Source: Deltaproteobacteria bacterium UBA4796 (GTDB lineage: Bacteria > Desulfobacterota > Syntrophorhabdia > Syntrophorhabdales > Syntrophorhabdaceae). From it: a stretch of 56,608 bases of DNA. The position numbers were made by a program, and so were the translations under genes. Positions 8,647-56,150 of this stretch are shown in pieces. The stretch spans positions 1-56,608 of the forward strand of contig DHGO01000123.1 of the NCBI GenBank assembly GCA_002402795.1, read 5' to 3'. Below the pieces are notes generated by a model that was not told the origin of the DNA, made no database searches, and saw nothing but the letters and a program-made list of their open reading frames with translations. Positions within the stretch are counted from its first letter, which is position 1. The number at the start of each line of letters is the position of its first letter.

Positions 8647-8672
8647 TGGACGCCTCCTGACAATTTTGAACT

Positions 8673-9711: not shown

Positions 9712-9884
9712 GTAGAAAATTGTATGGAAAAAGGAGCAACTCTTTTATAATGTTTTTATATGAACATATCTCCAATGTTTTTTTGATATTTGCCACTCAC
9801 CATCATAGTAAGCTCGGGACATATTTTTATATCCATCTGAACAGGGCGGGTGCTTTATTCCGCTACCTTAAGGTAATCCTACCA

Positions 9885-10022: not shown

Positions 10023-10182
10023 TAAGCCAGCCATAGACTTCTATTCGAACGACTTCGAGATTTCTCTTTAGTTGCCCCGGAAAGAATTCTTGAGGACCTC
10101 CATTTTTTCTTGACTTTTATTTCGAAAACAGGGCAAAAGGGACCGGGAGAAATTCAGTCAGCTTCGGCAGACTCTTCTTCGC

Positions 10183-10542
10183 TTGGCCGGCGGAATTAAG
10201 GGACTGGTCGAACCTTTGTTTTCTCATCGCCCGGTGATCAAAGGAACGGTCTATGAGCTGAAGTGCAGATGTGGAAAGCCGGGCTGTAAGTGTGCTCGTG
10301 GGGAATTGCATGCGCGTATGGTGGTCGGCGCCAGCGAAGGAGGCAAGACCCGGTTGCAGGTCATTCCCCGTGGATTTCTCGTTGAGGTTCAAGCGAAGGT
10401 GCGGCGTTATCAGGAGTTGCGGCGGGTTCGAGCCCGACTGGGAGAGATTTATCGGAAGATGCTGGGGGTGATGGATCAGATGGAGGCGATGCGTCGGGAG
10501 GAGATGTCTTCATCGGGGAAGAGGCGCCTGGGAGGGGATTAG
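10183..10542 (+). CDS. small Cys-rich protein of the DUF6788-like type (often seen next to IS/integrative elements)
   Basis: YELKCRCGKPGCKCARGELH motif followed by a basic helical tail. Sits in a GC-rich island clearly different from the flanks. Confidence 0.45.
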   Translation: MAGGIKGLVEPLFSHRPVIKGTVYELKCRCGKPGCKCARGELHARMVVGASEGGKTRLQVIPRGFLVEVQAKVRRYQELRRVRARLGEIYRKMLGVMDQMEAMRREEMSSSGKRRLGGD

Positions 10543-10831
10543 CCGAGATGGACCTGGTGATCTTTGAGCAGAACAAGCCGCTCGTCCTGGAGGAGGGACT
10601 GGGCAACGGAGGGTTTGACTACATCGAGGCGGCCAGCGAGGTCTTTGAGGCCGATTTCTTCCGGTTTATCAAAGCTCGGCCTATCTGGATGAGTTGGCAG
10701 AGACCTATTCCATGTCCTGGAAGAAAGTTGATACAATTGTCGATATAATGCGTTTTTTCATGGTCTAAAATTGCCTCTCGATGCTATACTGTCAAGGATT
10801 TGCGTCGTCAAAAATTCAAGAGGCTGAGATA

Positions 10832-11069
10832 ATGGGTAAAAAAACTGTCCTTATTGCGGTTCAAACAATACCAGGAAAAAAGGTTATATAAGAAACAGCG
10901 CTAACGGTATCAGTGTAAATTGTGCGATAGGCAGTTTCAAAATCACTCACGGCAGAAACGGTTAGAGCAAGTTCTGTGGAATGACTATGTCTATCAGCGA
11001 CAACCATACATCAGCTATCAGAAAAACATGAGAGGGGCAAAGACAGAAGATGAGAGAATGGGTGGATGA
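10832..11069 (+). pseudogene. N-terminal zinc-ribbon fragment of an IS transposase, disrupted
   Basis: MGKKTVLIAVQTIPGKKVI-stop, then in another frame RYQCKLCDRQFQNHSRQKRLEQVLWNDYVYQRQ. Truncated where the octamer repeat tract begins. Confidence 0.35.
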
Positions 11070-11071
11070 GG

Positions 11072-11146
11072 AATAAAGGCAATAAAGGCAAGGCACAGAG
11101 GCACAGAGGCAATAAAGGCAAGGCACAAAGGCACAGAGGCACAAGG
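11072..11146. repeat. tandem GGCACAGA/GGCACAAA/GGCAATAAA repeat tract (octamer family)
   Basis: Direct reading gives GGCAATAAA GGCAA GGCACAGA GGCACAGA GGCAATAAA GGCAA GGCACAAA GGCACAGA GGCACAAG. Confidence 0.9.
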
Positions 11147-11222
11147 GGAAGGAAGGGATAAAAAAGGTTGACAGAACTTTTTGTTATTGTTAGTTTTTGG
11201 AAAAAATCATAGAGGAGGGATT

Positions 11223-11438
11223 ATGAAGAGCGAAAGCAGGGTTGCAAGGGTTACTGAGGTCATTGCCGGTTCTCCAAAAAGCTTTGAAGATGCAGTGACT
11301 GTGGGTTTCAAGAGGGCTGCAAAAACCCTACGGGGCATTACTGGTTTGAAGGTAAGTGATATGCGGTGCAAGGTTGAGGATGGGAAGATTGTGGAGTACA
11401 GGGTAACACTGGAGGTACTATTTATACTGGAAAGTTAA
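11223..11438 (+). CDS. dodecin-family small flavin-binding protein
   Basis: MKSESRVARVTEVIAGSPKSFEDAVTVGFKRAAKTLRGITGLKVSDMRCKVEDGKIVEYRVTLEVLF fits the dodecin pattern. ATG 11223 has AGAGGAGGG upstream, so the track start at 11181 is unlikely. Confidence 0.7.
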   Translation: MKSESRVARVTEVIAGSPKSFEDAVTVGFKRAAKTLRGITGLKVSDMRCKVEDGKIVEYRVTLEVLFILES

Positions 11439-11462
11439 TAAAGGCACAGAGGCACAGAGGGC
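11437..11462. repeat. octamer-family repeat (AATAAAGGCACAGAGGCACAGAGG)
   Basis: Same units as 11072-11146, immediately after the dodecin stop. Confidence 0.85.
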
Positions 11463-11603
11463 GAAGGACTCTCTGGAACGATAACCGAGGACGCCTTGGG
11501 GACTCCCAGTTATGATGAGGTGGGTGTCCATGATACATCGAGTGAGCCGAATCTTACTGGGGTAAGGTGCCCGGAGTAAAAGAGTGGAAGACAGGCTTCG
11601 CAA

Positions 11604-11623
11604 CAAAGGCAAGGCACAGAGGG
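11604..11623. repeat. octamer-family repeat (AAAGGCAAGGCACAGAGGG)
   Basis: Same units again, just before the GT2 gene stop. Confidence 0.8.
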
Positions 11624-11635
11624 AAGGGCGAATCA

Positions 11636-12622
11636 CTATTTACGGGATCTATTAGAGCGGAGGCCGAAGCTATCGGGATAGCCTGAGAGGCTCCAGAGAA
11701 GAAGGCGGGCATAGTAGGAATAGCTACGACGAATCTTTTTATTGAAGAGTAGAAAGGGCAGGCAGGTTGTACATATAATAAAAATGGAGGTTTTGATAAA
11801 ACGTATCCACTGGAATAGAATGTAGTAAGGAAGGGAATGATGTTTTTTTATAAACTTGTGTAATGAAATATTATATTCGATCCTCCCCTTCACCCATGCC
11901 TTTCGGACGGTTTGTCCCTGAAGGTGAATAACCTTCACGTCTGGTAAGAATACTACCCTCTGCCCCATGCCCCTTGCCCTTAAGCAAAGATCTGTCTCTT
12001 CAAGAAAGAAAAAGAATTGTTCATCAAACCCTCCTAATCTTTTCAGAAGTGATTTTCTTACAAGAATAGCAGCACCAATGAGGGAGGGAACATCTATGAT
12101 ACAGTGACTGGTGATTGATGACTGATGACTGGTGACTGGGGACCGGTGATTGGTGATAGGTGACTGGTGACCGGGAATTAGTAAAAACTGTGGAAGGAGT
12201 TCGGAGAGGAGGGAGGGGACTACTGCAAGGGAGCGCTGAAACCGCATATCAGGAAATACAAGCTGGGGACCGCAGATACCCACATCTTTGTGTTCTTCCA
12301 TAAAATGGAGCATCTTCACAACCTCGCCATCTATGAGGCGTGTGTCAGAATTGAGAAAGAGCAGATAATCACCTTTAGCACGGGTAATTCCCATGTTTGC
12401 TGAAGCTGCAAATCCCTTGTTCTCATTGTTTTTCAAATATTGAAGAGAAGGAAATTTCTCCCTTATCATTACCTCTGTCCCATCTGTTGAGCCATTGTCT
12501 ATTATAATAATATCCTGTATGTATGGTTTAAGGGATGTGTCCTTCTCAATCGAAAGTAGAAGGGATTTCAGAAGTTGTTCTGTATCTTTTGTAATGATAA
12601 TGATTGAAAGTATAGAAGCCAT
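11636..12622 (-). CDS. family-2 glycosyltransferase
   Basis: N-terminal IIIITKD...IIIIDNGSTDGT GT2 signature. Contains an in-frame heptamer-repeat insert (HQSPITNHRSPVTSHQSSITSH). Confidence 0.75.
   Translation of the reverse strand: MASILSIIIITKDTEQLLKSLLLSIEKDTSLKPYIQDIIIIDNGSTDGTEVMIREKFPSLQYLKNNENKGFAASANMGITRAKGDYLLFLNSDTRLIDGEVVKMLHFMEEHKDVGICGPQLVFPDMRFQRSLAVVPSLLSELLPQFLLIPGHQSPITNHRSPVTSHQSSITSHCIIDVPSLIGAAILVRKSLLKRLGGFDEQFFFFLEETDLCLRARGMGQRVVFLPDVKVIHLQGQTVRKAWVKGRIEYNISLHKFIKKHHSLPYYILFQWIRFIKTSIFIICTTCLPFLLFNKKIRRSYSYYARLLLWSLSGYPDSFGLRSNRSRK
12104..12173. repeat. heptamer tandem repeat GTGAYYG, about 10 units, inside the GT2 gene
   Basis: GTGACTG GTGATTG ATGACTG ATGACTG GTGACTG GGGACCG GTGATTG GTGATAG GTGACTG GTGACCG. 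Confidence 0.9.
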
Positions 12623-12667
12623 TTCAAGCTTTTTGAATTATACTGGATGTTTTATGAAATAACTATA

Positions 12668-14521
12668 CTAAAATTTTGAAGAACCTTTTTTCTGCCTCAT
12701 CATATTGCAGACAATTAAACACATTCCGCACATTACGCAAATTCCATCATCTACAACAACCTTACGCCTTTCCTCATCGAATGTAATGGCCGGACAGCCA
12801 AAGAATTTTATACACCCTTTACATCCAATACAGTCCCTCTCGATTGGAAGGTCTTCAACCATCTTCTTTACTCTGCCCCTTGCATTAAGGAGGCATTCTC
12901 TCCGGGCAATTATAACAGCAGGTGAGTGGTGATTAGTGATTGGTGACCGGTGACTTGTGACCGGTGACTGGTGAGTGGTTAGGTAATCGTATGCCTCTTT
13001 AATGGTTTGTATCATGAGGGGGATGTCGTAAGGGTCAATGACCTTTACAAAACCAATACCAAACCCTTTAAGCACATTCTCAATGGTAATTGAGCGTGTA
13101 TGTGTGCCGTCAGCAGTAATGCCTGTCTGAGGGGTTGGCTGCATACCTGTCATGGCTGTTGTGCCATTGTCCATGATAACAAGAATAAACTTTTTATTTG
13201 TAGTTACTGCATCGTAGAGAGGTGGCAAGCACGCATGAAAGAATGTGGAATCACCAACCGAAGCAAGTATGGGTGGCACTTTTCCATCCTGATGAAAGGT
13301 ATTATAAAAACCAGAAGCAAGGGTTACACCGCTACCCATGTCAATGCAGGTATCCACAGCGCCCTGTAGTGTCCCGAGAGTATAGCATCCAATATCTCCG
13401 GGAAAGATCGCATCGGGAAAGGCATACCGCATTGCATAGAAGGAAGACCTATGAGAACAGCCTGCACAGAGTTTTGGTGGTCTTGGCTTTACCGCAACTG
13501 TCTTCATTGCTTCTTCAATGCGGCTATCGGGTACAAAACTCTTCTTTTCAATACCTGCCTTCTCCATTGCCCTTTCAATAACCCCTTTCACCACATCATA
13601 GGTAAGTTCTCCTTCTTTCGGGACATAACCATTTCTCCTTCCAAGTGCTTTTTTGCCCCTATCTATAAGCGCTTCAATCACTGCATCTGTCTCTTCGAGG
13701 ACAAGAACGTTGTCAACGCTGTCAAGAAATGCCTGCAGGCCGGGAGTAGAAGAGCCGCGAAGGGTGACTGGTGACTGGTGACCGGTGATTGGCGAGAATT
13801 GAACTACTTTATAAATCGGGACAATGTCTGAAATACCAATATCTTGAAGCACATCCATAGCTATGGAGTAAGTCATGCCAGAAGCAACAATGCCAAGAGC
13901 CATGATTCGTGATTGGCGATTGGCAAGTGGTGATTGGTGATTGATTCCTTCATGGAGGGTGACTTTGCGTGTGCCTGGTGGATAAAGAGGGACTGCCTGA
14001 CGGGCATGGCTCACCCTGTGGGTGGAACGCAAAATAACAGGGGTCTTATGCTCAAATGAGTACTTAAGTGCACAATAGGCAATGTCAGCAGCTTCTTCTG
14101 GAGATGCAGGGTCAAAGACAGGTATATAGAATAGTGTGGCAAGAAGTCTTGTATCCTGCTCTGTCTGTGATGATTGAGGCCCGGGGTCATCACAGGAGAC
14201 AACTACAAGAGCGCCTTTTATGGTCTTGTGCATTCCACGCAAAAGGGCTGGAAAGGCAACGTTTAATCCCACCTGCTTCATCATACAGGCCGCCTTTTTT
14301 CCTGCTATAGCAGCCCCATAAGCAACCTCCATGGCACACCGTTCATTGACTGACCATTCAGTGTGAATCGCACACTTCTCTCTCCTTTTAAACTCAATAA
14401 TGCCAGGGAGAATTTCTGAACTTGGCGTACCTGGATATGCAGCGGCTACCTGAATACCGGCTTCAACAAGTCCCCGTGCAATGGCGTAATTGCCCATCAT
14501 GACCTCTGCCAGCACCTTCAA
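12668..14521 (-). CDS. iorA: indolepyruvate:ferredoxin oxidoreductase alpha subunit
   Basis: 617 aa. TPP-enzyme layout with GDSTFFH...IMDNGTTAMTG. C-terminal double ferredoxin motifs CIGCKGCIKFFGCP and CVMCGMCLIVC. Start overlaps the upstream iorB stop by 4 nt (translational coupling). Three heptamer-coded inserts. Confidence 0.8.
   Translation of the reverse strand: MKVLAEVMMGNYAIARGLVEAGIQVAAAYPGTPSSEILPGIIEFKRREKCAIHTEWSVNERCAMEVAYGAAIAGKKAACMMKQVGLNVAFPALLRGMHKTIKGALVVVSCDDPGPQSSQTEQDTRLLATLFYIPVFDPASPEEAADIAYCALKYSFEHKTPVILRSTHRVSHARQAVPLYPPGTRKVTLHEGINHQSPLANRQSRIMALGIVASGMTYSIAMDVLQDIGISDIVPIYKVVQFSPITGHQSPVTLRGSSTPGLQAFLDSVDNVLVLEETDAVIEALIDRGKKALGRRNGYVPKEGELTYDVVKGVIERAMEKAGIEKKSFVPDSRIEEAMKTVAVKPRPPKLCAGCSHRSSFYAMRYAFPDAIFPGDIGCYTLGTLQGAVDTCIDMGSGVTLASGFYNTFHQDGKVPPILASVGDSTFFHACLPPLYDAVTTNKKFILVIMDNGTTAMTGMQPTPQTGITADGTHTRSITIENVLKGFGIGFVKVIDPYDIPLMIQTIKEAYDYLTTHQSPVTSHRSPITNHHSPAVIIARRECLLNARGRVKKMVEDLPIERDCIGCKGCIKFFGCPAITFDEERRKVVVDDGICVMCGMCLIVCNMMRQKKGSSKF
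12922..12977. repeat. heptamer tandem repeat, 8 units plus a degenerate ninth, inside iorA
   Basis: GTGAGTG GTGATTA GTGATTG GTGACCG GTGACTT GTGACCG GTGACTG GTGAGTG. Encodes THQSPVTSHRSPITNHHSP. Confidence 0.9.
13764..13791. repeat. heptamer tandem repeat, 4 units, inside iorA
   Basis: GTGACTG GTGACTG GTGACCG GTGATTG. Encodes TGHQSPVT. Confidence 0.85.
13909..13943. repeat. heptamer tandem repeat, 5 units, inside iorA
   Basis: GTGATTG GCGATTG GCAAGTG GTGATTG GTGATTG. Encodes INHQSPLANRQS. Confidence 0.85.
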
Positions 14522-15078
14522 GATAGAACCTCCTTTGCTCCCATGTAGCCTGCCTGAAAGATCTCAAGATTCTTTTCAAGGAGTTTTTCTGAAACCCTTT
14601 TTTTAATCGTTCGCTCCACATTTTCCCGTGTATAGGGTTCAATGGATAAGAAGGCGAAGAATCCGAGGAGTGCCATGTTCGCTGCCTGAATCATGCCCTT
14701 TTCTTTTGCAATCCTGTCAGCGTCAACAAGATAACAGGCAAGTGCCCTTTCCTGTGCAAGGGAATAAATCGCATCAGGCAAAGTCTTTCTTTGAGTATTT
14801 ACTAAAGCAATGCCTTCCCGTTTCAGCATTGCGATGTTTCTATAGAATTCACTCTCTTCAAAGGCAAGGATGATATGAGCCCTTTCCCTTCCTATAAGGG
14901 GACTCTTAAAATCACCCACCTTAACAAGGGATACTACAGAGCCACCTCTCTGGCTCATGCCGTATTCGTCCGAGGCAATAGCATTGTGTCCGCTGGCAAT
15001 GGCAGCCTCAATCAAGATGGTCGAGGCAAGAAGAACCCCCCTGCCACCAATGCCTGCGCACACGATTTCAAGTTTCAT
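14518..15078 (-). CDS. iorB: indolepyruvate:ferredoxin oxidoreductase beta subunit
   Basis: 186 aa with the VCAGIGGRGV motif of the 2-oxoacid oxidoreductase gamma/IorB fold. Its stop overlaps the start of the downstream iorA by 4 nt. Confidence 0.75.
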   Translation of the reverse strand: MKLEIVCAGIGGRGVLLASTILIEAAIASGHNAIASDEYGMSQRGGSVVSLVKVGDFKSPLIGRERAHIILAFEESEFYRNIAMLKREGIALVNTQRKTLPDAIYSLAQERALACYLVDADRIAKEKGMIQAANMALLGFFAFLSIEPYTRENVERTIKKRVSEKLLEKNLEIFQAGYMGAKEVLS

Positions 15079-15177
15079 CCATATACCTCATTCAGTATCA
15101 AGTAGTCAGTAGCCAGAATATAGAATAAAAAGGGGCTGTTCACTACATTCTGTACTCTGACTCCTGTATTCTATTGC

Positions 15178-16452
15178 TCATACCATTCCTTTATAGAAAA
15201 CTACGGTCATTTCATCACTATCCTTGAAGCGTTCAATTTCATTAACGTCCTTAAGGTAAAAGATGTTTGTAAAACCCCATCCTTTCAATAGATTCTCAAT
15301 CTCCTGTGCCCTTTTATTCGTCATAATGAGAAGCAAATAGGAAGAATTGTTGTAAAGCGTGTTAATGAACGCAGGCATACCTGAGTGGAAAAAGGCATCC
15401 TCAAAGGTAATGGCAAGGAGCTTCTTTTCAGGGCTGCTCCTTTTTATGCCATGTGCCATGTTGATGGATGATGCAGGTCCAAGAATATCACGTACCACAT
15501 AAAATCCGTACATGGTCTCTTCGTGCTTTTCTTTTGAGTGACCCGCAAAGAAAGGCTCTTTTATAAGTTTTTCTCTATCCCCTATCTGGAGCTCAATCAC
15601 CGGATATTCACCCTCTACTATGTAAAATGTATCCACCTCGCTAATAAATGAACTGACGAGCTTGCGGGGTAAAGGATGAACTGTAGAAAGGGTAAGAATG
15701 CTTTCATCCCCATCAGGAAATGATGAATAGACCATTCTCGTGGTTATAACGCCCCTCTTTCCCTTTATGACTTTCTTATTACCTTCATATGTCTCAAGGT
15801 CTTCCCGAATATTGTTTAGTTTGTCATTGAGTTCTTTGTGGAGAGAAAATCTGAATTGGGGTGTTGCTGCCCATCGGGCAGGATTCCTGACAAACCGTGC
15901 TTCGTGAGTGGTAGGTGGCGAGTGGTGACTGGTGACCGGTGGCTGGTGACCGGTGGCTGGTGATTCCTCAGGTGTGACCTGTATAATAACAGGTATTTCA
16001 TATTTTTCAGAGATGGTGTAGCCAGATGTAACTGCACGGGTAAAATCATCAAGGGTCTCTGTCACAAAGAGTGGCATCTTTGAAAAGAGACCAAGGGGTG
16101 TCACTTCCTCAACGGTATCCCTGATTCCTATGATGAGAAGACCGCCAATAACACCTGTATAGGCAGAACTCATGATCGGGTCCAATGCCTCATATACCCT
16201 TTCAGCTGAAAACATACAGGTATTTCTCTTCCCCGCAATGCTTCCGGTTAAGGCAAGCTCATAGGCTACCTTTTCGTTGATGGGTATTTCTGTATGAAAG
16301 GATGGATACTCTGTTTTCAGTTTCTCAAGGGTGGCTCCAATAATTTTGTGTGTTGTGTATATAAACCTGGAGCCACTATTCAAAAGGACTCTGCAGTATG
16401 GCTCATATATATTGCTCATCTGGTTGCTATACCATGCTTCTAAGAATTTCAA
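15178..16452 (-). CDS. IorA-like paralogue lacking the ferredoxin domain and with a degenerate TPP/Mg motif
   Basis: NEKVAYELALTGSIAGKRNTCMF aligns with iorA NERCAMEVAYGAAIAGKKAACMM. Where iorA has GDSTFFH...IMDNGTTAMTG, this protein reads FEDAFFH...IMTNKRAQ. Carries a heptamer insert (ATGHQPPVTSHHSPPTTH). Confidence 0.6.
   Translation of the reverse strand: MKFLEAWYSNQMSNIYEPYCRVLLNSGSRFIYTTHKIIGATLEKLKTEYPSFHTEIPINEKVAYELALTGSIAGKRNTCMFSAERVYEALDPIMSSAYTGVIGGLLIIGIRDTVEEVTPLGLFSKMPLFVTETLDDFTRAVTSGYTISEKYEIPVIIQVTPEESPATGHQPPVTSHHSPPTTHEARFVRNPARWAATPQFRFSLHKELNDKLNNIREDLETYEGNKKVIKGKRGVITTRMVYSSFPDGDESILTLSTVHPLPRKLVSSFISEVDTFYIVEGEYPVIELQIGDREKLIKEPFFAGHSKEKHEETMYGFYVVRDILGPASSINMAHGIKRSSPEKKLLAITFEDAFFHSGMPAFINTLYNNSSYLLLIMTNKRAQEIENLLKGWGFTNIFYLKDVNEIERFKDSDEMTVVFYKGMV
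15904..15966. repeat. heptamer tandem repeat, 9 units, inside the IorA-like gene
   Basis: GTGAGTG GTAGGTG GCGAGTG GTGACTG GTGACCG GTGGCTG GTGACCG GTGGCTG GTGATTC. Confidence 0.9.
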
Positions 16453-20647: not shown

Positions 20648-20692
20648 TTTGGATATACAGTTCAGGCCTGCTCCGAAGGATGTAAATGAGGG

Positions 20693-20697
20693 AGTGG
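20693..20697. repeat. 5-bp target-site duplication AGTGG (right-end copy)
   Basis: AGTGG directly abuts the terminal inverted repeat at 20698. An identical AGTGG abuts the other end at 56584-56588. Confidence 0.7.
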
Positions 20698-20703
20698 TAT
20701 AAC

Positions 20704-20770
20704 TTAACACCTAATTTGAGAAAAAGTAACAGGAGTTTGAGAAAAAGTTAACAGGTAGTTTGAGAAATTT
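20704..20770. promoter_or_regulatory. right-end transposase-binding repeats (three contiguous sites)
   Basis: TTAACACCTAATTTGAGAAAAAG / TAACAGGAGTTTGAGAAAAAG / TTAACAGGTAGTTTGAGAAATTT in direct tandem. The innermost site overlaps the RT stop codon. Confidence 0.7.
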
Positions 20771-21803
20771 TACCGCTCAAAATTAGGTATTTCAAACACA
20801 GATTTGCTCCTCTTTTTACATTAGCATGTTGACAGTGTCCCAACCATGATGATAATGAGCATCTTACATCGGAAAGATTAATTAATCCCTCTTTATATGC
20901 CTTTGAAAACCTTTTAAAACGCTTTGTGGCGCGAATAAGACTGCTCTTTCGTAAAAGTATATTATTATGCCATATTCTATAGCCCAGAAAATCAATACCT
21001 CGACTCACAGGGTAGATATCGCTCTTAGGGTTAAGGTTGAGCTTAAGATGACTGTTCAGAAACAGAGATATTTCTCTTTTAAGACGGTGCAGTTCTTTAT
21101 GATCTCCATTAAATATAAGAAAATCATCCATATATCTGATGTAATATTTCACCTTTAAAACATGTTTTATGTATTGATCCAGCTCATTCAAATAAAGATT
21201 GGCGCCCCACTGGGAGATTAGATTACCAATGGGCATGTTCTTTGATTCAGGATCGTCCCTATCAAACGTATTATTAAAAACAATCCGATTAAAGAGCCAC
21301 ATGGTTTCTTTACATTTTATTTTTTGAGCGATGATCCGTAGCATTATATGATGGTTAATGGAAGGAAAAAATTTTGTTACATCGCATTTTAAACAATAGA
21401 CCTTCCCCCATTCTTGCTGTGACCTTCTCAGAAATTCAACGGTTCTCGTGACTCCCGCATGGGTACCCTTATTTATTCTACATGCGTATGAGTCATAAAT
21501 AAAGAAGCTATTCCAAATTGGCTCCACGATGTTCATGATTGCATGATGGACTATCCGGTCTTTAATTGGTGATACATAAATAATCCTTTTTTTCGGCTCG
21601 TAGAGGGTAAATGTCCGGTATGGACTCGGGGTATAAGTTTTATTAATCAGCTCCCCTTGAAGGTTAATTAAGTTTTCTTCCAGGGCATCCTTATATTGAA
21701 GGATATCTCCGTAGTACCGTCTGCCCTTTGAAACCTTATAAAGGGCAAGGTTAAGGTTCTCTAAATCACAAATCTTTTCATATAGGTTACCATATCTCCT
21801 CAT
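20748..21803 (-). CDS. DGR reverse transcriptase
   Basis: 351 aa with a YMDD box (YIRYMDDFLIF) and the DGR-type motif PIGNLISQWGANLY ([LIV]GxxxSQ). Lies directly downstream of the TR. Confidence 0.9.
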   Translation of the reverse strand: MRRYGNLYEKICDLENLNLALYKVSKGRRYYGDILQYKDALEENLINLQGELINKTYTPSPYRTFTLYEPKKRIIYVSPIKDRIVHHAIMNIVEPIWNSFFIYDSYACRINKGTHAGVTRTVEFLRRSQQEWGKVYCLKCDVTKFFPSINHHIMLRIIAQKIKCKETMWLFNRIVFNNTFDRDDPESKNMPIGNLISQWGANLYLNELDQYIKHVLKVKYYIRYMDDFLIFNGDHKELHRLKREISLFLNSHLKLNLNPKSDIYPVSRGIDFLGYRIWHNNILLRKSSLIRATKRFKRFSKAYKEGLINLSDVRCSLSSWLGHCQHANVKRGANLCLKYLILSGKISQTTC

Positions 21804-23481: not shown

Positions 23482-24786
23482 TCAGGGTACAAGTACTGCG
23501 CGGGCACCGATGTACCAGGCGTAGTCCGAGGGCGCGTTGATCAAGGCCAACGCGCCAGGGCACCGAGCACCGGAGTCACAGTTGCCCCCGCGAAGGGATA
23601 TTCTTTCATCGGTAGCGACATACCAAAACCCCTGACCATCGAATCCTCCTTGACCAGAGGGCACAGTGCTTGCAGGGATTCCATGTTTTTTTAGCAGGTT
23701 TTCAGTGCGTAGAGATGCCACGCTTTGCCCTGATGTAACACCATCGACAGTCAGTCCTGTATCTACGAATGATGCATGTCCGTATCCATCTGTTGGATCT
23801 GTAAAAGGATTTACTGTTTTCAAGGCAGTATATATACCATTGGCATTCAATCTCAATCCGTCAGCAAATTCCCATCGGTTTCCACAAAAATCGCTTACAG
23901 GAATTTCCCATAGTTTGCTCCCCCCACCTGCAAGGGAGCCACCCCAAGCAGCGTCCAGCGTGGGGTCTTTTAGCCCTATATCGTTAGGGTCAAGATGCCA
24001 CTGCGGGATATGGTTAGAGGCATTGTAACCATTGGTGTTGCCTCTCAATAGCCAACGATTGATACGTGTCCACAGCCACAACTCATTCCAGTGTGCGTCA
24101 GTCATCAATCCACCTTTGCCTGCCCAACCTTCATAAGCCGCTCCTTGTCCTAAATGCAAAAATCCACCTTTATCAAAACGGGACTTTAGATATTGTCTGA
24201 AATGAGCGATTGTCTGGGCTACCCTCGGCACTTTCAAGGGCTGGCTAATATAACATTTTCTTCCTGTGTCACTCCCATTGCATACATCCCCAGCAGCTAT
24301 CATTGTAGCATTACTGCTTGAGCATAGATACATGTCAACCCAATACCCTCCCATCTCATTCTCCCATAAGACAGAAGAGTGTTCCCAATGAGTAGGAGTA
24401 TCACCTGTAGCTATAAAGCACTGTCCAGAGGCATTTTGTGGCGCACCTACATTTGTGAAGTCATCATCAGCTTTAAGTTCCTCAATCCTATAATGCCTGC
24501 CAACAGTAAGTGCCCCTGATGTCAAGCGTAGCCTTTTTCCAAGAACCTCATAATCTGTGTTTTCTGTCCATCCAGTTTGAATCTGTTCAGGATGGAAGAA
24601 GTCCCCTACCGTGCCTGATGGAGTAGCAACTTTTGCATTATCAGTCAATGCCCTACAAGCAGTGAATGGGGGTATCCACTTCATGTAGGAATAGAAGCCG
24701 TCTACGTCAACGAAAATACCGATAAAGGTATCAAACTTACTCATCTGCTCTCTTATCCATAAGCTATTTCTTTTAACTATTGCCAT
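23482..24786 (-). CDS. DGR target: receptor-binding / tail-fibre protein with C-terminal variable region
   Basis: 434 aa. The C-terminus LRGGNCDSGARCPGALALINAPSDYAWYIGARAVLVP is encoded by VR. The gene lies at the distal end of the tail module. Confidence 0.8.
   Translation of the reverse strand: MAIVKRNSLWIREQMSKFDTFIGIFVDVDGFYSYMKWIPPFTACRALTDNAKVATPSGTVGDFFHPEQIQTGWTENTDYEVLGKRLRLTSGALTVGRHYRIEELKADDDFTNVGAPQNASGQCFIATGDTPTHWEHSSVLWENEMGGYWVDMYLCSSSNATMIAAGDVCNGSDTGRKCYISQPLKVPRVAQTIAHFRQYLKSRFDKGGFLHLGQGAAYEGWAGKGGLMTDAHWNELWLWTRINRWLLRGNTNGYNASNHIPQWHLDPNDIGLKDPTLDAAWGGSLAGGGSKLWEIPVSDFCGNRWEFADGLRLNANGIYTALKTVNPFTDPTDGYGHASFVDTGLTVDGVTSGQSVASLRTENLLKKHGIPASTVPSGQGGFDGQGFWYVATDERISLRGGNCDSGARCPGALALINAPSDYAWYIGARAVLVP
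23496..23596 (-). repeat. DGR variable repeat (VR)
   Basis: Lies at the 3' end of the target gene, ending 14 nt before its stop. Differs from TR at 14 positions, 13 of which are TR adenines. Confidence 0.9.
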
Positions 24787-47547: not shown

Positions 47548-47916
47548 TTAAATTTCTTTACGATATTTTCTATTATATTCAAGGTCGTACTCCTTCTTCG
47601 CAATTACCCTGCAAATAAGGCAGCGTCTTGCCCGTGTCCATGCCTCGAATAATTTTCCACATCTTTCACATGGACGCATGTTCCCCTTTGTCCCTTTGTG
47701 CCTCTCTCCCTTTGTGCCTTTGTGCCTCTGTGCCTCTGTATCTTTATTCTCTTCATCTTCCATTCCCATTTTCCTCTTTATCCCTTTATACATCCTGAAT
47801 CCGCATGTAACACAGGCAATAGCTTCGGTCCCGTTTTGCCTGTCATCGTCTCGGCACAGGCTTGTGCTACCGCATTTAGGGCAGGTGATGTTTGGTGATT
47901 TTTCTTTTACCATCAT
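47548..47916 (-). CDS. double zinc-ribbon early protein with octamer-repeat-encoded insert
   Basis: CPKCGS...CVTCG and CERCGK...CLIC, separated by DTEAQRHKGTKGERHKGTKG, which is encoded by the octamer repeats. Confidence 0.55.
   Translation of the reverse strand: MMVKEKSPNITCPKCGSTSLCRDDDRQNGTEAIACVTCGFRMYKGIKRKMGMEDEENKDTEAQRHKGTKGERHKGTKGNMRPCERCGKLFEAWTRARRCLICRVIAKKEYDLEYNRKYRKEI
47687..47738. repeat. octamer-family tandem repeat inside a phage gene
   Basis: TTTGTCCC TTTGTGCC TCTCTCCC TTTGTGCC TTTGTGCC TCTGTGCC on the plus strand (reverse complement of GGCACARA). Confidence 0.85.
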
Positions 47917-49031: not shown

Positions 49032-49070
49032 ATTCACCTCCTATAAATTTTTCGTTTCTTTGTTTTTGAC

Positions 49071-49105
49071 TCATCGCTCATCACTTGCCACTTATCACTC
49101 ACCAC
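49071..49105. repeat. heptamer-family repeat, 5 units, intergenic, stop-containing orientation
   Basis: The minus strand reads GTGGTGA GTGATAA GTGGCAA GTGATGA GCGATGA, just downstream of the GemA-like stop. Confidence 0.75.
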
Positions 49106-49113
49106 TGTAGTTC

Positions 49114-49578
49114 TCATATTGCCAGCCTCCTTCTTGTTGCCGGGTGCTCCTTCATCTCCTGAAGGGCCCGCATAATCTTCCTTGCCTGCCAGTCCTCAAG
49201 AAATCGTATATTTGAGACGTGAAAGAACCCATATATGAATTTATTGAGCGCCCTGAGCTTTGTTTCCTGGTCGGGTTGATAGGAGACATCGCACCACATC
49301 GCCTCAATCTTTCGGAGCTGTCTCGGCGATGCAAAGCCCTCTCTATCACCAAGGTCATCATATTTTGCTTTGTTGCCCTCGCTGTGCTTCCATTTGCCTG
49401 TTTTTTCAGCAATATAGCGCAGTCTTTGGATCATTACTTCTGCCTGTCCGTAGTTCAATTTCAGACATGTATCAACATCAAACCATCGCCTGAGCAACCC
49501 CCGGTAGTCCTCATCCGGCATCTTTAAGGCACCGGTTAATACGTGAATTAGCTTTTTTTGTCTATTATTAATCTCCAT
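49114..49578 (-). CDS. gemA: GemA / Mu gp16-like (DUF1018) protein
   Basis: NNRQKKLIHVLTGALKMPDEDYRGLLRRWFDVDTCLKLNYGQAEVMIQRL...ASPRQLRKIEAMW fits the DUF1018 pattern. Confidence 0.65.
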   Translation of the reverse strand: MEINNRQKKLIHVLTGALKMPDEDYRGLLRRWFDVDTCLKLNYGQAEVMIQRLRYIAEKTGKWKHSEGNKAKYDDLGDREGFASPRQLRKIEAMWCDVSYQPDQETKLRALNKFIYGFFHVSNIRFLEDWQARKIMRALQEMKEHPATRRRLAI

Positions 49579-50380: not shown

Positions 50381-50698
50381 TTAATGCCCCCTTAAAGAGC
50401 AGTTAAGACACATTTTATATAGCCTTAAGGTTTCTGGATTTCCCGCCTTCATGCCTATTTTCTTTGCAAGATTCCACTTCTCACCGCATTTTGTAGGGGT
50501 AATTTTACCAAGAATGGGGCAATTGATGCCGCCGTTTCCATAAATCTTTTTGATTCTCCTCAACATATTTTCAAGATTCCCTGGATATTTTTCGGAAACG
50601 AGCAGATTGACAGACGAAACACTAACCCCCAACTCAGATGCCACCTGCTTTATGCCCTTTGTCTCTATTTCTCTTTTTAATATCTCAATTTCATTCAT
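50381..50698 (-). CDS. HTH + Cys-rich early DNA-binding protein
   Basis: 105 aa with GIKQVASELGVSVSSVNLLV. Confidence 0.5.
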   Translation of the reverse strand: MNEIEILKREIETKGIKQVASELGVSVSSVNLLVSEKYPGNLENMLRRIKKIYGNGGINCPILGKITPTKCGEKWNLAKKIGMKAGNPETLRLYKMCLNCSLRGH

Positions 50699-51227
50699 CT
50701 TTTTCTCCCTCTATGCCTTTGTGCCTCTGTGCCTCAGTGCCTTTGCTCCTCTGTGCCTCTATGCCAATGGGCCTATCGGGCCCCGGATCCTTGATAAGTG
50801 CCCATACAACGCCTCTCCCGCCATGCCTCGACGGCTGTATATATCCTAATTTTCTGTAATGCTTTGTAAAAAAGGCAACGTTTTCAGGATGTTGATCGCA
50901 TATCGTAATGAGATCGTATCTTGTGAATCTTCTCATTGCCCTGATCGCCTTCCACATCTTGTCCCAACCGTTTTTTTCTGTCTTGCGCTTAACTTTCCAT
51001 AGCTCTTTTGTATTTCTGTATGTGATTTCTTTGCCTGGACGGCCCTTTTTGAAGGTTGGAGTGGCCCCCCCTTCTGCAAAGCGCACAATTGCGCCTTCTT
51101 TTTCAAGCTTCCAGAGGACATGGCGCACCCTGGAACGATTTTCTTTTACAATATCAGCGACCTGGCTCACTGTATAAATGCTTGTGCCAAACGATTTACA
51201 CGCCGCGATGATTTCTATTCTCATCAC
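50691..51227 (-). CDS. winged-helix early protein with octamer-repeat-encoded C-terminal tail
   Basis: 178 aa. The C-terminus IGIEAQRSKGTEAQRHKGIEGEKDE is encoded by the repeat tract. Confidence 0.5.
   Translation of the reverse strand: MMRIEIIAACKSFGTSIYTVSQVADIVKENRSRVRHVLWKLEKEGAIVRFAEGGATPTFKKGRPGKEITYRNTKELWKVKRKTEKNGWDKMWKAIRAMRRFTRYDLITICDQHPENVAFFTKHYRKLGYIQPSRHGGRGVVWALIKDPGPDRPIGIEAQRSKGTEAQRHKGIEGEKDE
50710..50765. repeat. octamer-family tandem repeat, 7 units, inside a phage gene
   Basis: TCTATGCC TTTGTGCC TCTGTGCC TCAGTGCC TTTGCTCC TCTGTGCC TCTATGCC. Confidence 0.9.
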
Positions 51228-51907
51228 TGCCTCTTTCCGTCCAGATGCGCCCTTGTAACTTCTTTCAGGCTATTGACCTTTGCAACTGCCTCTGCCCTGT
51301 ACATCCACACCACCACCCGTCTGAACCTGTTAGCCTGGCTATGGATATATGAAATGGCATCGTTATGGAGTTTTGTCTCACACATATTCTCTGCAATTAT
51401 CCTTACGTCCTCTTCGGTCAGTGGATGGAATCTGACTATTTCCGAAAACCTGTCATATAAATGCTTGAATCTCATTAGTTTTTTATCTGCCTGGTCCATG
51501 CCTATAAGCACCAGCGGGCTTCCTGTGGTATCATATAGGTCCCTCAGGGTCTCGATGATTTTTGCATCGTGAGCAAGATAGTCCGCCTCATCAATAAACA
51601 ATGCCCGTGGCCTTTCAAAGAGCTGTTCCACTGCCTGACGCCAGAGATCAGATGTTTTTCTCATGGGCGCCTCACCGAGCTCTGCTACAATCTCTTCAAG
51701 AAGCCACCGACCGGTCATCAGCTTTTTTGTCCTTACAAACACCCCATCGTTCTGAAGCCCCCACCATAAGGCGGTGCGGGTCTTGCCAACCCCTGGCTCG
51801 CCATATACAAGCGCCATGCCAGGGATTCCTTCCTCCCTCTTTTGTAGCCTTGACATGGCTGTAATAAAGGCGTTGACGTTACTCGTCTTTACAAATGTTC
51901 TTTTCAT
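51224..51907 (-). CDS. MuB-like AAA+ transposition ATPase
   Basis: Walker A GEPGVGKT and Walker B LFIDEADYL. Downstream of the transposase. Confidence 0.75.
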   Translation of the reverse strand: MKRTFVKTSNVNAFITAMSRLQKREEGIPGMALVYGEPGVGKTRTALWWGLQNDGVFVRTKKLMTGRWLLEEIVAELGEAPMRKTSDLWRQAVEQLFERPRALFIDEADYLAHDAKIIETLRDLYDTTGSPLVLIGMDQADKKLMRFKHLYDRFSEIVRFHPLTEEDVRIIAENMCETKLHNDAISYIHSQANRFRRVVVWMYRAEAVAKVNSLKEVTRAHLDGKRQ

Positions 51908-51916: not shown

Positions 51917-52312
51917 TCATTCATAAATTTCTTTGATATAGTCCAGCAAAACGAATTTGTTTGCTATCCTGTGATGAAAATGAAAAATTATGTGGGCAAA
52001 TATCCCGGCATTGATGCTCCCCTCCGCAACAACCCTGTTTTCAAAGAGAGTATAGTGTTCGATATATGGTTTGTGCCCTGGTTCATTTGTTATTTTTTTC
52101 AATATGTTATGCTCACGCGGGGTTAGATTATGAAGCCCGCAAATGCAGATGTAATTCTCAAAAAAATATGAGCGATAAAGGGGCATATCAATCTTTGGCA
52201 CCCCTATAAATGGAATATTTTGCTTATAAAAATTGATTATTTGAATGTCGATATTAGAATCAAAAGGATAGCTTTCTGCCTGCTTTATCTTTTCATATAT
52301 AGGGCTAAACAT
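51917..52312 (-). CDS. hypothetical AT-rich ORF inserted between transposase A and B
   Basis: 131 aa with a His-rich patch (FAHIIFHFHHRI). Visibly more AT-rich than the flanking genes. Overlaps the A stop by 8 nt. Confidence 0.5.
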   Translation of the reverse strand: MFSPIYEKIKQAESYPFDSNIDIQIINFYKQNIPFIGVPKIDMPLYRSYFFENYICICGLHNLTPREHNILKKITNEPGHKPYIEHYTLFENRVVAEGSINAGIFAHIIFHFHHRIANKFVLLDYIKEIYE

Positions 52313-54467
52313 TTATTCCGTCTTCCTTTATTGTTTCTGTTGTTTTTGTTGTTTCTGTTGTTTGAATCTTTAAAAAAGGCTTAATCATCCTGAAATCATT
52401 AGAGTTTTCAAACTCCTCCTTGAACACAAAGTCGCTTGGGCTAACAAACCCGTTAGCCAGATGCCATTCGTATCTTTTTATCGCATCGAGGCCGAAGAAT
52501 GGTCTTTCTGGCCTGTCTGATTCGGGAGCGGTGGCGGGGTTTTCGTCTTGCGGGTTTACAGGGCTGCATGCCTCTTCCGGTATGTGCTCTTCTATGCCTG
52601 GAAGTTCTATGTTTTCCGCTTCAAGCTTCTCTGGAAGAGAAGGCGCGGCTTTAATAACCTGCTGCCAGTCCATCTCAATTGACTTTCCAATGCGAGCGAG
52701 CTCTTTAATGCCTTTTATGGTTCTTTTTTGCAGATTTGCCTGGAGAGAGCGGGCTTTCTGAAGGGCTTCCATGTCAAGCTTTGTTCCTGATACTCGTGCA
52801 ATTGGATGGACGTCTTCAACTCTCTTTGCTTCGCAAAGTAATTCGCCGGACAAGGCATAGACCTTAATGGATGCGAGGTCAAAAAGACTATATCTTATGA
52901 TGACCTGTTCTCTTAATCCATAGAGAGCATCATCATAATAGTCGGCGCCAAGAAATCTTATGCCTCGCTGTCTGATATTGGCTATTTTCGTACTCAGCAT
53001 GAGATCATCAAGTTCATGTGGATCAACCCCGCTGCCAACTCCCTCATCAAAGACCTCTCCAATTGTTTTGCCTTTCACGTGCGGGCATGGTTGCGAGCGT
53101 AAGAAATCATGCCACATATCAATCAACTCAATGGTTTCTTCGATAGTTGGAATATATTGTTTATGAAGGGCTTTATGAAATTTTTCATTTCTCAATAGAT
53201 GGGCTGGTTTATCCTCTATGGATGAGCCGGTATATGATGGAAGAAGGCGCTCGAATGTGTTGGTGAATTCCTGGAACCACCGCTCGATGACCTTTGCCCT
53301 TGCATTATAGGGTTTTGCAAATATAGGTATTGTGCCAAGACGGGCAAAAAGTCCATATATGCCCGCCTCATTGAATGTGTCTATTGAGGTGAAGAATTTT
53401 GCTCGAAATGCCTTTCCATTGTCGAGATAGATAACTTCAGGGTATTTTTTGAGCCGAAGAATCGAGTTTCTGAAGGCACTGGCGATGCATTGGGTGCTTT
53501 CTTCAACCATGACCTCATAGCCCACAAGGTCCCAGCTCTTCCAATCAAGATACCCGACAAGAACTGCTCTGCAGGGCTTCCCTGTGAAGGGATTTATTAC
53601 CTGGAAATTGAGTCTGTGCCCGTCGGCAACGAGGGCTTGGCCCACCTCTAAGAGAGAGGCATCTCTTTTAATGTAAAAATTCACCTTGTCCGTGAGGGCT
53701 TTCTGCCCCTCACGCATAAAAACCCACCTGTCGTAGAACTTCGATTTATAGTCTTCTGCAAACCTCCTGAAGGTCATATGGGATTTGTTGACCGTGATTC
53801 CTCGCTCATGAAAATAATATTTGAGGAGGCGAATTGCAGAGCCTATTTTGATTTTATTTGGATGGAGAAGCATGCCTAAAAACACCCTCTCTTCAGAGGA
53901 AGAGAGGCGGGGCCTGTCTGAATTTCTGTGATATTGGGGAATAAGACACGCCCAATCCTCGGTCCCCTCTAAAAACGCCTTCCAGCGGTAAAGAGTCTGG
54001 ATTGATGCTTCGCCAAGAATGGCGTGGATGGCAGGATATAAGTTGCCTGTATTATATCCTGATATAAATTCGGTATCGGCATTGGTGGCCCTGTCGTGTG
54101 TGGAGCGGTATTCTTGCCAGATACGAAGCAGGTCCATGCGGGCGAGGGCAATGCGACGGGCCTTCTCGGTGGTTGCAGCTGGGAGAACAGGCACCCGCTC
54201 AGGGAGGGTAGGAGCAAGCGCCTGTTCCGGGAGGGTAGTTATGTGAGATGGAGGGGTTATAGATGCTAATGATGTAGTAGATTGCGAAGTTAGATAAAGA
54301 CGGGTTTCTTCCGGGAGGGAGGAGATGTGGTATTCACGGCCTCCGCCTTTATCGGTGCGGGGACGAGATTGCCATAAACATTTTTTTGCTTTTATTTGTA
54401 TTGCTCGTTTTGTCCCGGGCATCCCTGGCGCCCCCGCCAGTTCCTTCACCGAGTACCATTCCTTCAT
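52305..54467 (-). CDS. MuA-like DDE transposase
   Basis: 720 aa. N-terminal MKEWYSVKELAGAPGMPGTKRAIQ (Mu-type winged HTH). Integrase-core candidates LVADGHRLNF, VIYLDNGKAF and AKVIERWFQEF. Confidence 0.8.
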   Translation of the reverse strand: MKEWYSVKELAGAPGMPGTKRAIQIKAKKCLWQSRPRTDKGGGREYHISSLPEETRLYLTSQSTTSLASITPPSHITTLPEQALAPTLPERVPVLPAATTEKARRIALARMDLLRIWQEYRSTHDRATNADTEFISGYNTGNLYPAIHAILGEASIQTLYRWKAFLEGTEDWACLIPQYHRNSDRPRLSSSEERVFLGMLLHPNKIKIGSAIRLLKYYFHERGITVNKSHMTFRRFAEDYKSKFYDRWVFMREGQKALTDKVNFYIKRDASLLEVGQALVADGHRLNFQVINPFTGKPCRAVLVGYLDWKSWDLVGYEVMVEESTQCIASAFRNSILRLKKYPEVIYLDNGKAFRAKFFTSIDTFNEAGIYGLFARLGTIPIFAKPYNARAKVIERWFQEFTNTFERLLPSYTGSSIEDKPAHLLRNEKFHKALHKQYIPTIEETIELIDMWHDFLRSQPCPHVKGKTIGEVFDEGVGSGVDPHELDDLMLSTKIANIRQRGIRFLGADYYDDALYGLREQVIIRYSLFDLASIKVYALSGELLCEAKRVEDVHPIARVSGTKLDMEALQKARSLQANLQKRTIKGIKELARIGKSIEMDWQQVIKAAPSLPEKLEAENIELPGIEEHIPEEACSPVNPQDENPATAPESDRPERPFFGLDAIKRYEWHLANGFVSPSDFVFKEEFENSNDFRMIKPFLKIQTTETTKTTETIKEDGINV

Positions 54468-55320: not shown

Positions 55321-55474
55321 TTTCGCAGTTATTTTTTTGAAGAAAATAAAGTAATTTTAAAAATGTATAATAAAAACAATAAGTTTGAAAACTGCGAAAT
55401 GAATTTTATTATTTCGCAGTTATTTCGCAGTTATTTCGCAGTTATTTCGCAGTTATGATGGTAAGCTACGAAAC
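55321..55474. promoter_or_regulatory. operator array: seven TTTCGCAG-core sites including four perfect tandem 11-bp units
   Basis: TTATTTCGCAG x4 at 55409-55452, abutting the repressor ATG. One direct copy at 55321-55328. Inverted copies at 55392-55400 and 55466-55474. A perfect TATAAT at 55366-55371. Confidence 0.6.
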
Positions 55475-56150
55475 GAATTTGAAAAATAGGCTTGCAATAC
55501 TTATGGGTAATAAAAAACCATTCAGGTGGGCCAAAGAAATAGGTATAAATGCAGCAACATTCAATAGAATATGGAATAAGGGCGGTCAATTAAAGTCTGA
55601 CCATGCAACGTTAATTATTAAAAAAACTGGTGTTTCCGCGCTGTGGCTTATTACCGGGGAAGGGCCTATGTATGAATATGAGCGTCAAAAAGGAAGAATG
55701 ATGGTTGCAGAGAATATAGAAAAATATAATATTCCCCAGGATGAATTCGTTTTAATTCCTGTCGTGCAAGGTAGAATAAGTGCTGGCGGCGGGCTTGTGC
55801 CCGATAATACCGTTGAGATGAAATGTGCATTTAAAAAGGAATGGATAGCAAAAAAGGGTGATTATAAAAATATGTCTATGATACGCATTCAGGGAGATAG
55901 TATGTCTCCTACGCTTCTTGATGGCGATGTGGTTCTTGTTAATCATAATATCCAGGTCGTTGGTGCTGCTGGCGGGATATATGCAATTACATTTCAGGAT
56001 GAAATCATTATTAAACGTATTAATAAGGTTTTCCCGACAGGTCAATTAAAAATTCAAAGCGACAATCCATCTTATGAGTCCTTTATTGTTGATCCTGCGC
56101 AGATTATAATAAATGGAAAGGTTATCTGGTATGCCAGAAATCTTGAGTAA
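55455..56150 (+). CDS. CI/LexA-type repressor with S24 autopeptidase domain
   Basis: N-terminal HTH (KPFRWAKEIGINAATFNRIWNKG). C-terminal GDSMSPTLLDGDVVLV plus IIIKRI (Ser/Lys dyad). Confidence 0.8.
   Translation: MMVSYETNLKNRLAILMGNKKPFRWAKEIGINAATFNRIWNKGGQLKSDHATLIIKKTGVSALWLITGEGPMYEYERQKGRMMVAENIEKYNIPQDEFVLIPVVQGRISAGGGLVPDNTVEMKCAFKKEWIAKKGDYKNMSMIRIQGDSMSPTLLDGDVVLVNHNIQVVGAAGGIYAITFQDEIIIKRINKVFPTGQLKIQSDNPSYESFIVDPAQIIINGKVIWYARNLE

Follow-up and report, generated by a model that had tools for sequence, protein, structure and literature searches.

In-frame heptanucleotide repeat tracts in linkers of conserved enzyme genes from a Syntrophorhabdaceae genome

Five tracts of a degenerate 7-nucleotide (nt) tandem repeat, GTGAYYG, lie inside three protein-coding genes on contig DHGO01000123.1 of Deltaproteobacteria bacterium UBA4796, a member of the Syntrophorhabdaceae; the whole stretch of 56,608 nt that was analyzed is called the window below. 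These tracts are probably heptanucleotide microsatellites of the STRR type, generated by slippage, with the genic ones surviving where they are free of stop codons, keep the reading frame and fall in tolerant linkers. The host genes are on the minus strand. The first encodes GT2, a family-2 glycosyltransferase of 328 residues (11636..12622; Pfam PF00535, E = 3.5e-23), and the second IorA, the alpha subunit of indolepyruvate:ferredoxin oxidoreductase, with 617 residues (12668..14521; Pfam POR_N, TPP_enzyme_C and Fer4; homologues named IorA), adjoined by iorB (14518..15078). The third encodes an IorA-like protein of 413 residues from the ATG at 16419 (15178..16419), or of 424 residues if the open reading frame (ORF) is taken mechanically from the TTG at 16452. 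The IorA-like protein has no Pfam matches and belongs to a family that is conserved in Syntrophorhabdus and annotated by JGI as "TPP-dependent IOR alpha". The nearest homologues of all three host genes are from Syntrophorhabdus or other Syntrophorhabdaceae.

Direct reading of the sequence between 11900 and 16200, Tandem Repeats Finder and a pattern scan agree in placing the five tracts where a sequence-only reading of this DNA had put them. The GT2 tract (12104..12173, minus strand) consists of 10 units with the sense CRRTCAC and corresponds to residues 150-173, PGHQSPITNHRSPVTSHQSSITSH. The three tracts of iorA, also on the minus strand, are tract A (13909..13943; about 5 degenerate units; residues 193-205, INHQSPLANRQSR), tract B (13764..13791; 4 units; residues 244-253, PITGHQSPVT) and tract C (12922..12979; about 8 units; residues 515-534, TTHQSPVTSHRSPITNHHSP). 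The tract of the IorA-like gene (15904..15966, minus strand) has about 9 units, the last six of them clean and the whole including the variants CAGCCAC and CGGTCAC, and corresponds to residues 152-172 of the 413-residue protein, ESPATGHQPPVTSHHSPPTTH. A sixth tract of the same unit family, with plus-strand units CTCATCR/CTCACCA, is found at 49069..49106 between two minus-strand prophage genes. Six loci of the GTGAYYG family are therefore present within 56.6 kb, five of them intragenic.

The abundance of the unit is far above chance. A two-unit pattern, GTGAYYGGTGAYYG, allowing at most 1 mismatch, matches 23 times in the window, in 23 of 23 cases on the plus strand, as compared to a mean of 0.16 and a maximum of 2 in 100 dinucleotide-preserving shuffles. 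Tandem Repeats Finder assigns 4.3-9.7 copies of a 7-nt unit to each tract. The units are degenerate, mostly by transitions at two positions (GTGACTG, GTGACCG and GTGATTG), and the longest run of identical consecutive units in a tract is 1.9-2.9. This excess of copies, together with the variation in tract length between strains described below, gives the tracts both of the properties by which long simple sequence repeats (SSRs; head-to-tail units of 1-11 nt in runs beyond chance expectation for the genome) were recognized, here as heptanucleotide microsatellites. Folded as single strands, the tracts reach only -0.3 to -4.8 kcal/mol and form no stable structure; an explanation by secondary structure or a G-quadruplex was rejected because of this weak folding and the lack of G runs. 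Insertion of a mobile element is not supported, as the aligned tract flanks contain no common flanking motif, target duplication or terminal repeat.

The reading frames account for how such a repeat can be accommodated in a gene. The sequence-only reading had claimed that the tracts lie in frame within three genes, that the unit encodes a cyclic heptapeptide, and that the opposite orientation carries TGA, and each of these statements held up. All five tracts lie within minus-strand ORFs, three copies of CAGTCAC translate as Q-S-P-V-T-S-H, and across four of the five tracts the minus strand is free of stops in every frame; the opposite strand carries TGA, and not one plus-strand frame is open across any of the five. 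A further claim, that only one orientation is found in genes, survives in part. The stop-free sense is indeed the coding sense in every genic tract, but this uniformity is not independent evidence of an orientation bias, because stop codons impose it. The stop-containing orientation does occur in untranslated DNA, since the tract at 49069-49106 has that orientation relative to both of its flanking genes.

The positions of the tracts within the proteins were analyzed by means of an alignment of 119 IorA homologues and a predicted structure. In the alignment, the sites of tracts A, B and C measure 8, 10 and 6 residues at baseline (in 42, 80 and 78 of the 119 homologues, respectively), and the IorA of Syntrophorhabdus aromaticivorans has these baseline lengths. 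The window IorA has 16, 23 and 19 residues at the same sites, and the maxima in the alignment are 95, 68 and 104 residues, while the protein outside of the three sites is nearly constant (median 566 residues). Site A is at the C-terminal edge of the POR_N domain, and site C is between the thiamine pyrophosphate (TPP)-binding and ferredoxin domains. An AlphaFold model of IorA built from 98 sequences (mean predicted local distance difference test score, pLDDT, 79.4; predicted template modelling score, pTM, 0.79) has its three longest internal segments with pLDDT < 50 at residues 196-199, 244-259 and 519-529; these segments of low-confidence coil lie within or overlap the tract residues 193-205, 244-253 and 515-534. 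The 98-sequence model was used for this comparison; an earlier run with 19 sequences (mean pLDDT 60) was too poor for placing loops, and a PDB sequence search with IorA found nothing closer than 1yd7, which matches the N-terminal domain distantly (E = 2.4e-7) and could not be used to place the tracts. The alignment and the predicted structure together put the IorA tracts in what would be tolerant linkers.

The tracts of GT2 and the IorA-like gene fill a linker or loop that is hypervariable in every relative, in the IorA-like protein an inter-domain linker. The sequence-only reading had proposed to check whether the tracts are lineage-specific insertions in loops or linkers, and had named non-repetitive sequence at the same sites in orthologues as evidence to the contrary. 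For IorA the outcome of this check is positive, the outgroups being merely shorter at the three sites, which coincide with low-confidence coil. For GT2 and the IorA-like protein, S. aromaticivorans has non-repetitive sequence at the tract sites and the loop is hypervariable in all relatives, so these two tracts are not clean insertions. It is more accurate to say that they occupy a variable loop than that they were inserted.

Comparison with related strains gives a view of how the tracts change. A close strain, L001 (JGI), shares the gene order of the window, is 94.4% identical to it in nucleotides over 6 kb, and has tracts at the matching sites. Across the five genes compared (about 6 kb of coding sequence), the only indels are 42 nt in the GT2 tract, where the window is longer than L001 by 6 units, and 18 nt in IorA tract C. 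A second relative, P0002 (88% identical), is shorter by exactly 7 residues (21 nt, or 3 units) at IorA site A. Looking for unit-number polymorphism, as had been suggested from the sequence alone, thus uncovered differences between strains, and in each of the compared sequences the length difference is a multiple of 3 nt, two of the differences being whole multiples of 21 nt (3 units). Each of these net length changes keeps the downstream frame.

The tracts also differ from the surrounding genes in their rate of substitution. Between the window and L001, 28 of 194 aligned tract positions have diverged (14.4%; 12.7% for the IorA-like tract), as compared to 4.3% in the genes outside of the tracts and 9.0% at their third codon positions. 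The divergence of the tracts is higher by Fisher's test against the genes outside (p = 6e-8) and against the third codon positions (p = 0.02), which argues that the tracts evolve at least as fast as nearly neutral sites. The lower divergence overall than at third positions indicates that the genes around the tracts are under purifying selection, and the tracts themselves evolve at about the neutral rate.

Arrays at the same sites are found well beyond the closest strains. Among the 119 IorA homologues, the pooled inserts have an amino-acid self-identity of 0.225 at lag 7, versus about 0.08 at other lags, which is the footprint of 7-nt repeats read in three frames. The insert-bearing sequences fall into clades, and every member of the window's clade has 28-191 additional residues. 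Contig L124, with an IorA 78% identical to that of the window (alignment A1), has the same unit family (TCACCAA/TCACCAC) at the same sites. Contigs L122 and L127, with IorA about 65% identical, carry long arrays of other units (among them AGGAACG, CCTCACG, TCAGCAA, GCATCCA and CAGCCAC, the last in 29.6 copies) at these sites and within the same three genes. The units at site C grade from ACCAGTC in the window through TCACCAA in L124 and AGCCACC in L127 to TCAGCAG in L122, as would fit old arrays with drifting units. Site C of L127 further contains an 84-nt higher-order duplication (12 units, 28 residues) that keeps the frame. A second heptamer within the GT2 gene of the window, TGCCCCA (11961-11979; 2.7 units, encoding RGMGQ), falls at a second GT2 site, where L122 and L127 have heptamer-derived inserts of 60 to 80 residues; it may be the remnant of an array, the seed of one, or a chance occurrence.

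A census of tandem arrays with at least 3 copies, made with Tandem Repeats Finder, showed period 7 in 6 of 9 arrays in the window, 4 of 6 in L001, 25 of 28 in L122 and 16 of 23 in L127. The density of period-7 arrays rises from 0.11 per kb (0.48% of DNA) in the window to 0.18 per kb (0.63%) in L001, 0.22 per kb (0.78%) in L124, 0.71 per kb (3.33%) in L127 and 1.13 per kb (4.35%) in L122, while the syntenic stretch of S. aromaticivorans (L126) has 0 arrays per kb (0%). In L122 there is an array in nearly every intergenic spacer, and among its genes of assigned function only GT2, IorA and the IorA-like gene have internal arrays, which argues that these three genes are special by their tolerance and not by targeting. 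The spacer between the IorA-like gene and iorB contains clear heptamer arrays in L001 (9411-9432) and L122 (9391-9427), which suggests that the conservation of array sites extends to non-coding DNA. The corresponding spacer of the window (about 15090-15126) has a weak heptamer periodicity, TCAGTAT CAAGTAG TCAGTAG CCAGAAT, that is below the reporting level of Tandem Repeats Finder. Arrays of L122 and L127 are often located within a few tens of bases 3' of stop codons, a position that has been reported for the G-rich heptamers of Xanthomonas and Nostoc as well (PMC4692102). These two contigs also have several small genes of the 23S_rRNA_IVP/bAvd family, toxin-antitoxin pairs and other short genes inserted between conserved genes (e.g. 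L122 14155..14478, 15250..15615 and 20679..20999).

The best explanation of these observations is a sequence of events in which the genomes of a Syntrophorhabdaceae lineage are prone to period-7 arrays, with slipped-strand mispairing or unequal recombination of the DNA as the probable source of the arrays and of their turnover. An array within a gene would persist only under three conditions: the coding strand has the orientation that is stop-free in all frames, the net length preserves the downstream frame, and the resulting peptide, rich in Pro, Ser, Thr, His and Gln with a 7-residue period, falls in a surface linker or inter-domain loop that tolerates disorder. The first of these is shown by the sequence, the second by the compared strains, and the third by the alignments and the AlphaFold model. 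Intact, conserved reading frames suggest that the tracts are translated, presumably as floppy linker segments that then drift about neutrally, and we infer that their hosts tolerate them without drawing a benefit. Arrays at these sites would be old, being common to a whole clade of IorA sequences; their units would be altered by point mutation, duplication and loss, which would explain why distant relatives have different heptamers in the same place.

Several considerations weigh against this model of slippage and tolerance. Translation of the tracts is deduced from the sequence. Local slippage by itself fails to explain one unit family at six separate loci of the window, or a handful of families (e.g. 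GCCTCAC, GAACGAG and AACGTTG) at many genic and intergenic loci of L122 and L127; such recurrence of unit families calls for some inter-locus copying or shared bias. Slippage likewise offers no explanation for a period of 7, and it leaves unexplained the steep differences in heptamer load between closely related genomes. Genic arrays were predicted to be more strongly periodic at 21 nt than at 7 nt, as a mark of frame-preserving steps of 3 units; overall there is no such difference (0.768 versus 0.766), and the effect is confined to individual arrays, for example L122 11667-11770 and the 84-nt higher-order repeat in site C of L127. Finally, the related alleles are few and protein databases under-report frameshifts, so out-of-frame variants could be missed.

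Heptanucleotide repeats are a described class, and the closest parallel to the window tracts is provided by the STRR (short tandemly repeated repetitive) sequences of heterocystous cyanobacteria, which likewise have 7-nt tandem units in few families at many dispersed loci. The classical STRR units, said to have been described by Mazel et al. in 1990, are reportedly CCCCAGT, TTGGTCA and CAACAGT, each of which we take to be one substitution from some rotation or strand of the GTGAYYG unit. The sequence-only reading could not link the unit to any described family, a statement that can now be revised: long arrays of the identical GTGAYYG/CAGTCAC unit occur in Sphaerospermopsis, Dolichospermum/Anabaena, Nostoc PCC 7120 and further cyanobacteria, Nostocales among them, and the unit is arrayed in many other phyla. 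A protein search with (HQSPVTS)6 gave 74 matches, mostly to hypothetical proteins of 40-74 residues from Sphaerospermopsis, Anabaena and Nostoc PCC 7120; their small size makes them look like spurious ORFs, the result of gene calling across long arrays. When one genome per prokaryotic species was scanned for exact matches to four GTGAYYG units in a row, at least 120 loci were found, and the hosts among the matches listed include cyanobacteria, Acidobacteriota, Planctomycetota, Verrucomicrobiota, Bacteroidota, Streptomyces, Geobacter, Omnitrophota and others. Among 129 tracts in the matches listed, 63 are in no long frame and 44 lie deep within open frames of 150 codons or more, where their sense is necessarily CRRTCAC; the latter count is an upper estimate because GC-rich genomes have long open frames by chance. 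GTGAYYG is thus a common heptamer repeat unit of cyanobacteria. The window differs from the STRR case in two ways: its host is a Syntrophorhabdaceae-like anaerobe rather than a heterocystous cyanobacterium, and five of its six arrays are inside conserved enzyme genes, whereas STRR are mainly intergenic.

The orientation logic of the window tracts also has a precedent, in the TAACTGA repeats of marine Beggiatoaceae. The forward orientation of TAACTGA has stops in all three frames and is kept to spacers and gene ends (MacGregor 2015, PMC4679880), and the reverse orientation encodes LSVISYQ repeats in 11 ORFs, mostly at protein peripheries, with one array inside an ORF resembling RNA polymerase beta-prime (PMC4679880). 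The great majority of the TAACTGA repeats are intergenic, and they have been proposed to act in the regulation of translation (PMC4679880). The window arrays differ in their unit, in their mid-protein location within inter-domain linkers of core enzymes, and in the conservation of their sites across a clade. In a survey of long SSRs (5-11-nt units), as it is summarized in later papers, heptanucleotides are the most abundant class in most prokaryotic genomes, polymerase slippage is proposed as their source, and units whose length is a multiple of three are the likeliest in coding regions (Mrazek, Guo & Shah 2007 via PMC4679880, PMC4692102). The G-rich heptamers of Xanthomonas and Nostoc are under-represented in coding DNA (PMC4692102). 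Unlike the coding-region trend of that survey, a non-triplet unit is the main intragenic repeat of the window. Heptanucleotide microsatellites in ORFs are thus already known, and it is the lineage and protein context that are not described in the literature searched; a literature search gave no mention of tandem repeats together with Syntrophorhabdus.

The recurrence of unit families raises the possibility of an active process, specific for period 7, that seeds and spreads heptamer arrays of a few families throughout the genome, with genes as collateral sites; candidates would be a lineage-specific property of a replication or repair enzyme, templated addition, or ectopic gene conversion between arrays. 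Such a process would account for the contrast at a single locus between 0 arrays in S. aromaticivorans and 0.7-1.1 per kb (3-4% of DNA) in L127 and L122, for the near exclusivity of period 7, for the few unit families at many loci on both strands within one genome, and for the identical GTGAYYG unit arrayed in many phyla. However, no candidate enzyme or template was found, the tract flanks have no signatures, terminal repeats or hairpins, and the recurrent families could come from chance together with selection for translatability. The process would, moreover, account for origin and spread, leaving the role of the tracts in genes unchanged, and we consider it an unlikely alternative to slippage followed by tolerance. 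A bolder formulation is that some Syntrophorhabdaceae, like heterocystous cyanobacteria and Beggiatoaceae, have an activity that generates or copies period-7 repeats, that it seeds arrays of a few families genome-wide with rapid turnover, that core enzymes have been lengthened by up to about 190 residues at fixed linker sites as a result, and that the window represents a mild or decaying stage. This formulation we hold to be somewhat more doubtful still; if it is true, comparative genomics should be able to find the determinant from the contrast between sister genomes at one locus (0 versus 1.1 arrays per kb).

A different kind of explanation is that selection acts at the protein level for flexible, Pro/Ser/Thr-rich inter-domain linkers, with the DNA repeat as a mere means. 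Arrays have been kept in place in IorA (all three sites), GT2 and the IorA-like protein across the clade, down to about 65% identity, their composition is typical of disordered linkers, and they are at or near domain boundaries, all as this explanation would have it. It has difficulty, however, with the many IorA clades, including that of S. aromaticivorans, that function with the minimal 8, 10 and 6 residues. Furthermore, length and sequence are unconstrained, with 16 to 95 residues and peptides that differ by lineage, the tracts diverge at least as fast as third codon positions do, their units are also found outside of coding sequence, and the periodicity is at the nucleotide level, with 7 nt read as a 7-residue period. 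The probability of such selection seems low, and the repeats are better explained as slippage products that their linkers tolerate.

Since 7 is not divisible by 3, one unit more or less would shift the frame, and the tracts might be contingency loci in which gain or loss of a single 7-nt unit by slippage toggles GT2, IorA or the IorA-like gene. All of the indels between strains are within tracts, and glycosyltransferase genes, of which one host gene is an example, are often phase-variable in pathogens. An experimentally shown case is neuO of Escherichia coli K1, in which a heptanucleotide repeat within the coding sequence (3-53 repeats of AAGACTC near the 5' end) allows full-length protein only if the unit number is divisible by 3, and in which 65.6% of genomes are phase-OFF (PMC13001214). 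The window tracts resemble neuO in being 7-nt repeats within coding sequence, with unit numbers that vary between strains and a frame that must be kept for full translation. They differ in being internal arrays of 4-10 degenerate units, and while a non-triplet unit is present inside the reading frame, the long, near-perfect array is not, as runs of identical units within these short, impure arrays extend to 2.9 at most. The alleles observed are all in frame (the window, L001, L123, L124, L122, L127, P0002, P0242, P0243 and P0246), although these roughly 10 related alleles are a small sample drawn from called proteins, which under-represent frameshifted genes. IorA, with three of the tracts, is a central catabolic enzyme, and the divergence values given above point to purifying selection outside of the tracts. 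Phase variation by these tracts is accordingly very unlikely, and the earlier suggestion that they are potential frameshift hotspots is weakened by the impurity of the tracts and by the in-frame alleles.

That the tracts are artefacts of assembly or sequencing, a concern since tandem repeats can be mis-sized by short-read assemblers and one that the sequence-only reading had raised, can be put aside with near certainty, because four of them are included in an independent ENA contig, L123, that is 100% identical over window positions 6668-14096, and because arrays are present at the matching sites in four other assemblies (the contigs coming from JGI, Logan, ENA and NCBI samples); in addition, the tracts are shorter than one read and every reading frame is intact. 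One protein, P0003 (488 residues, 99% identical), was considered as a possible frameshifted allele and rejected, since the first 345 nt of its contig are unmatched to the window and the remainder is 100% identical. Positions 1-345 of L123 have no BLAST match anywhere in the window, the match starting inside iorA, and may represent a chimeric contig end or a rearrangement variant.

The wider meaning of these tracts is that a non-triplet microsatellite can colonize conserved enzymes without destroying them, provided that it passes a three-part filter of stop-free orientation, frame-preserving lengths and tolerant linkers. The Syntrophorhabdaceae have undergone repeated colonization of the same sites, with a few units in the window and, in relatives, arrays of about 30 units and additions of as many as 191 residues. 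Heptamer tracts of this kind inflate and diversify protein length, complicate alignment and annotation, disrupt short-read assemblies and give rise to spurious ORFs. The contrast in heptamer load at one syntenic locus provides a handle on why 7-nt units dominate the long microsatellites of bacteria, and this lineage-wide pattern is of more interest than the five short, decaying tracts of the window.

The window contains a second repeat family, with an 8-nt unit whose sense is CACAGAGG / CACAAAGG. It is found with plus-strand AGGCACAG in intergenic DNA around the dodecin gene (11077-11141, 11442-11460 and about 11605-11622), and in the reverse orientation both in the linker of a small zinc-ribbon-like ORF (47685-47739 in 47548..47916) and at the C-terminus of a prophage ORF (50708-50765 in 50691..51227). 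The copies in the two ORFs are read in frame with an 8-residue period, EAQRHKGT-like, and the frame logic of the heptamers extends to this family because 8 is also coprime with 3. The upstream genes, at 1-10 kb of the window, encode a fumarate-reductase-type flavoprotein, two UbiD-family decarboxylases and two NUBPL/ParA-type P-loop proteins, a content that is consistent with a syntroph that degrades aromatic compounds.

Much of the remaining DNA, from about 20.7 to 56.2 kb of the window, is a Mu-like prophage with genes for a MuA transposase (52305..54467), a MuB-like AAA protein (51224..51907), GemA (49114..49578) and an S24 repressor (55455..56150), as well as for Portal_Mu, Mu F, a large terminase and tail proteins. 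A diversity-generating retroelement is located at the tail end of this prophage, with a reverse transcriptase (20748..21803), a template repeat (21963-22066) and a variable repeat (23493-23596) at the 3' end of the ORF 23482..24786. The template and variable repeats are 104 nt long and 86% identical, with 13 of the 15 mismatches at adenines of the template copy. A tandem repeat with a 21-22-nt unit at 20704-20767 overlaps the 3' end of the reverse transcriptase gene.

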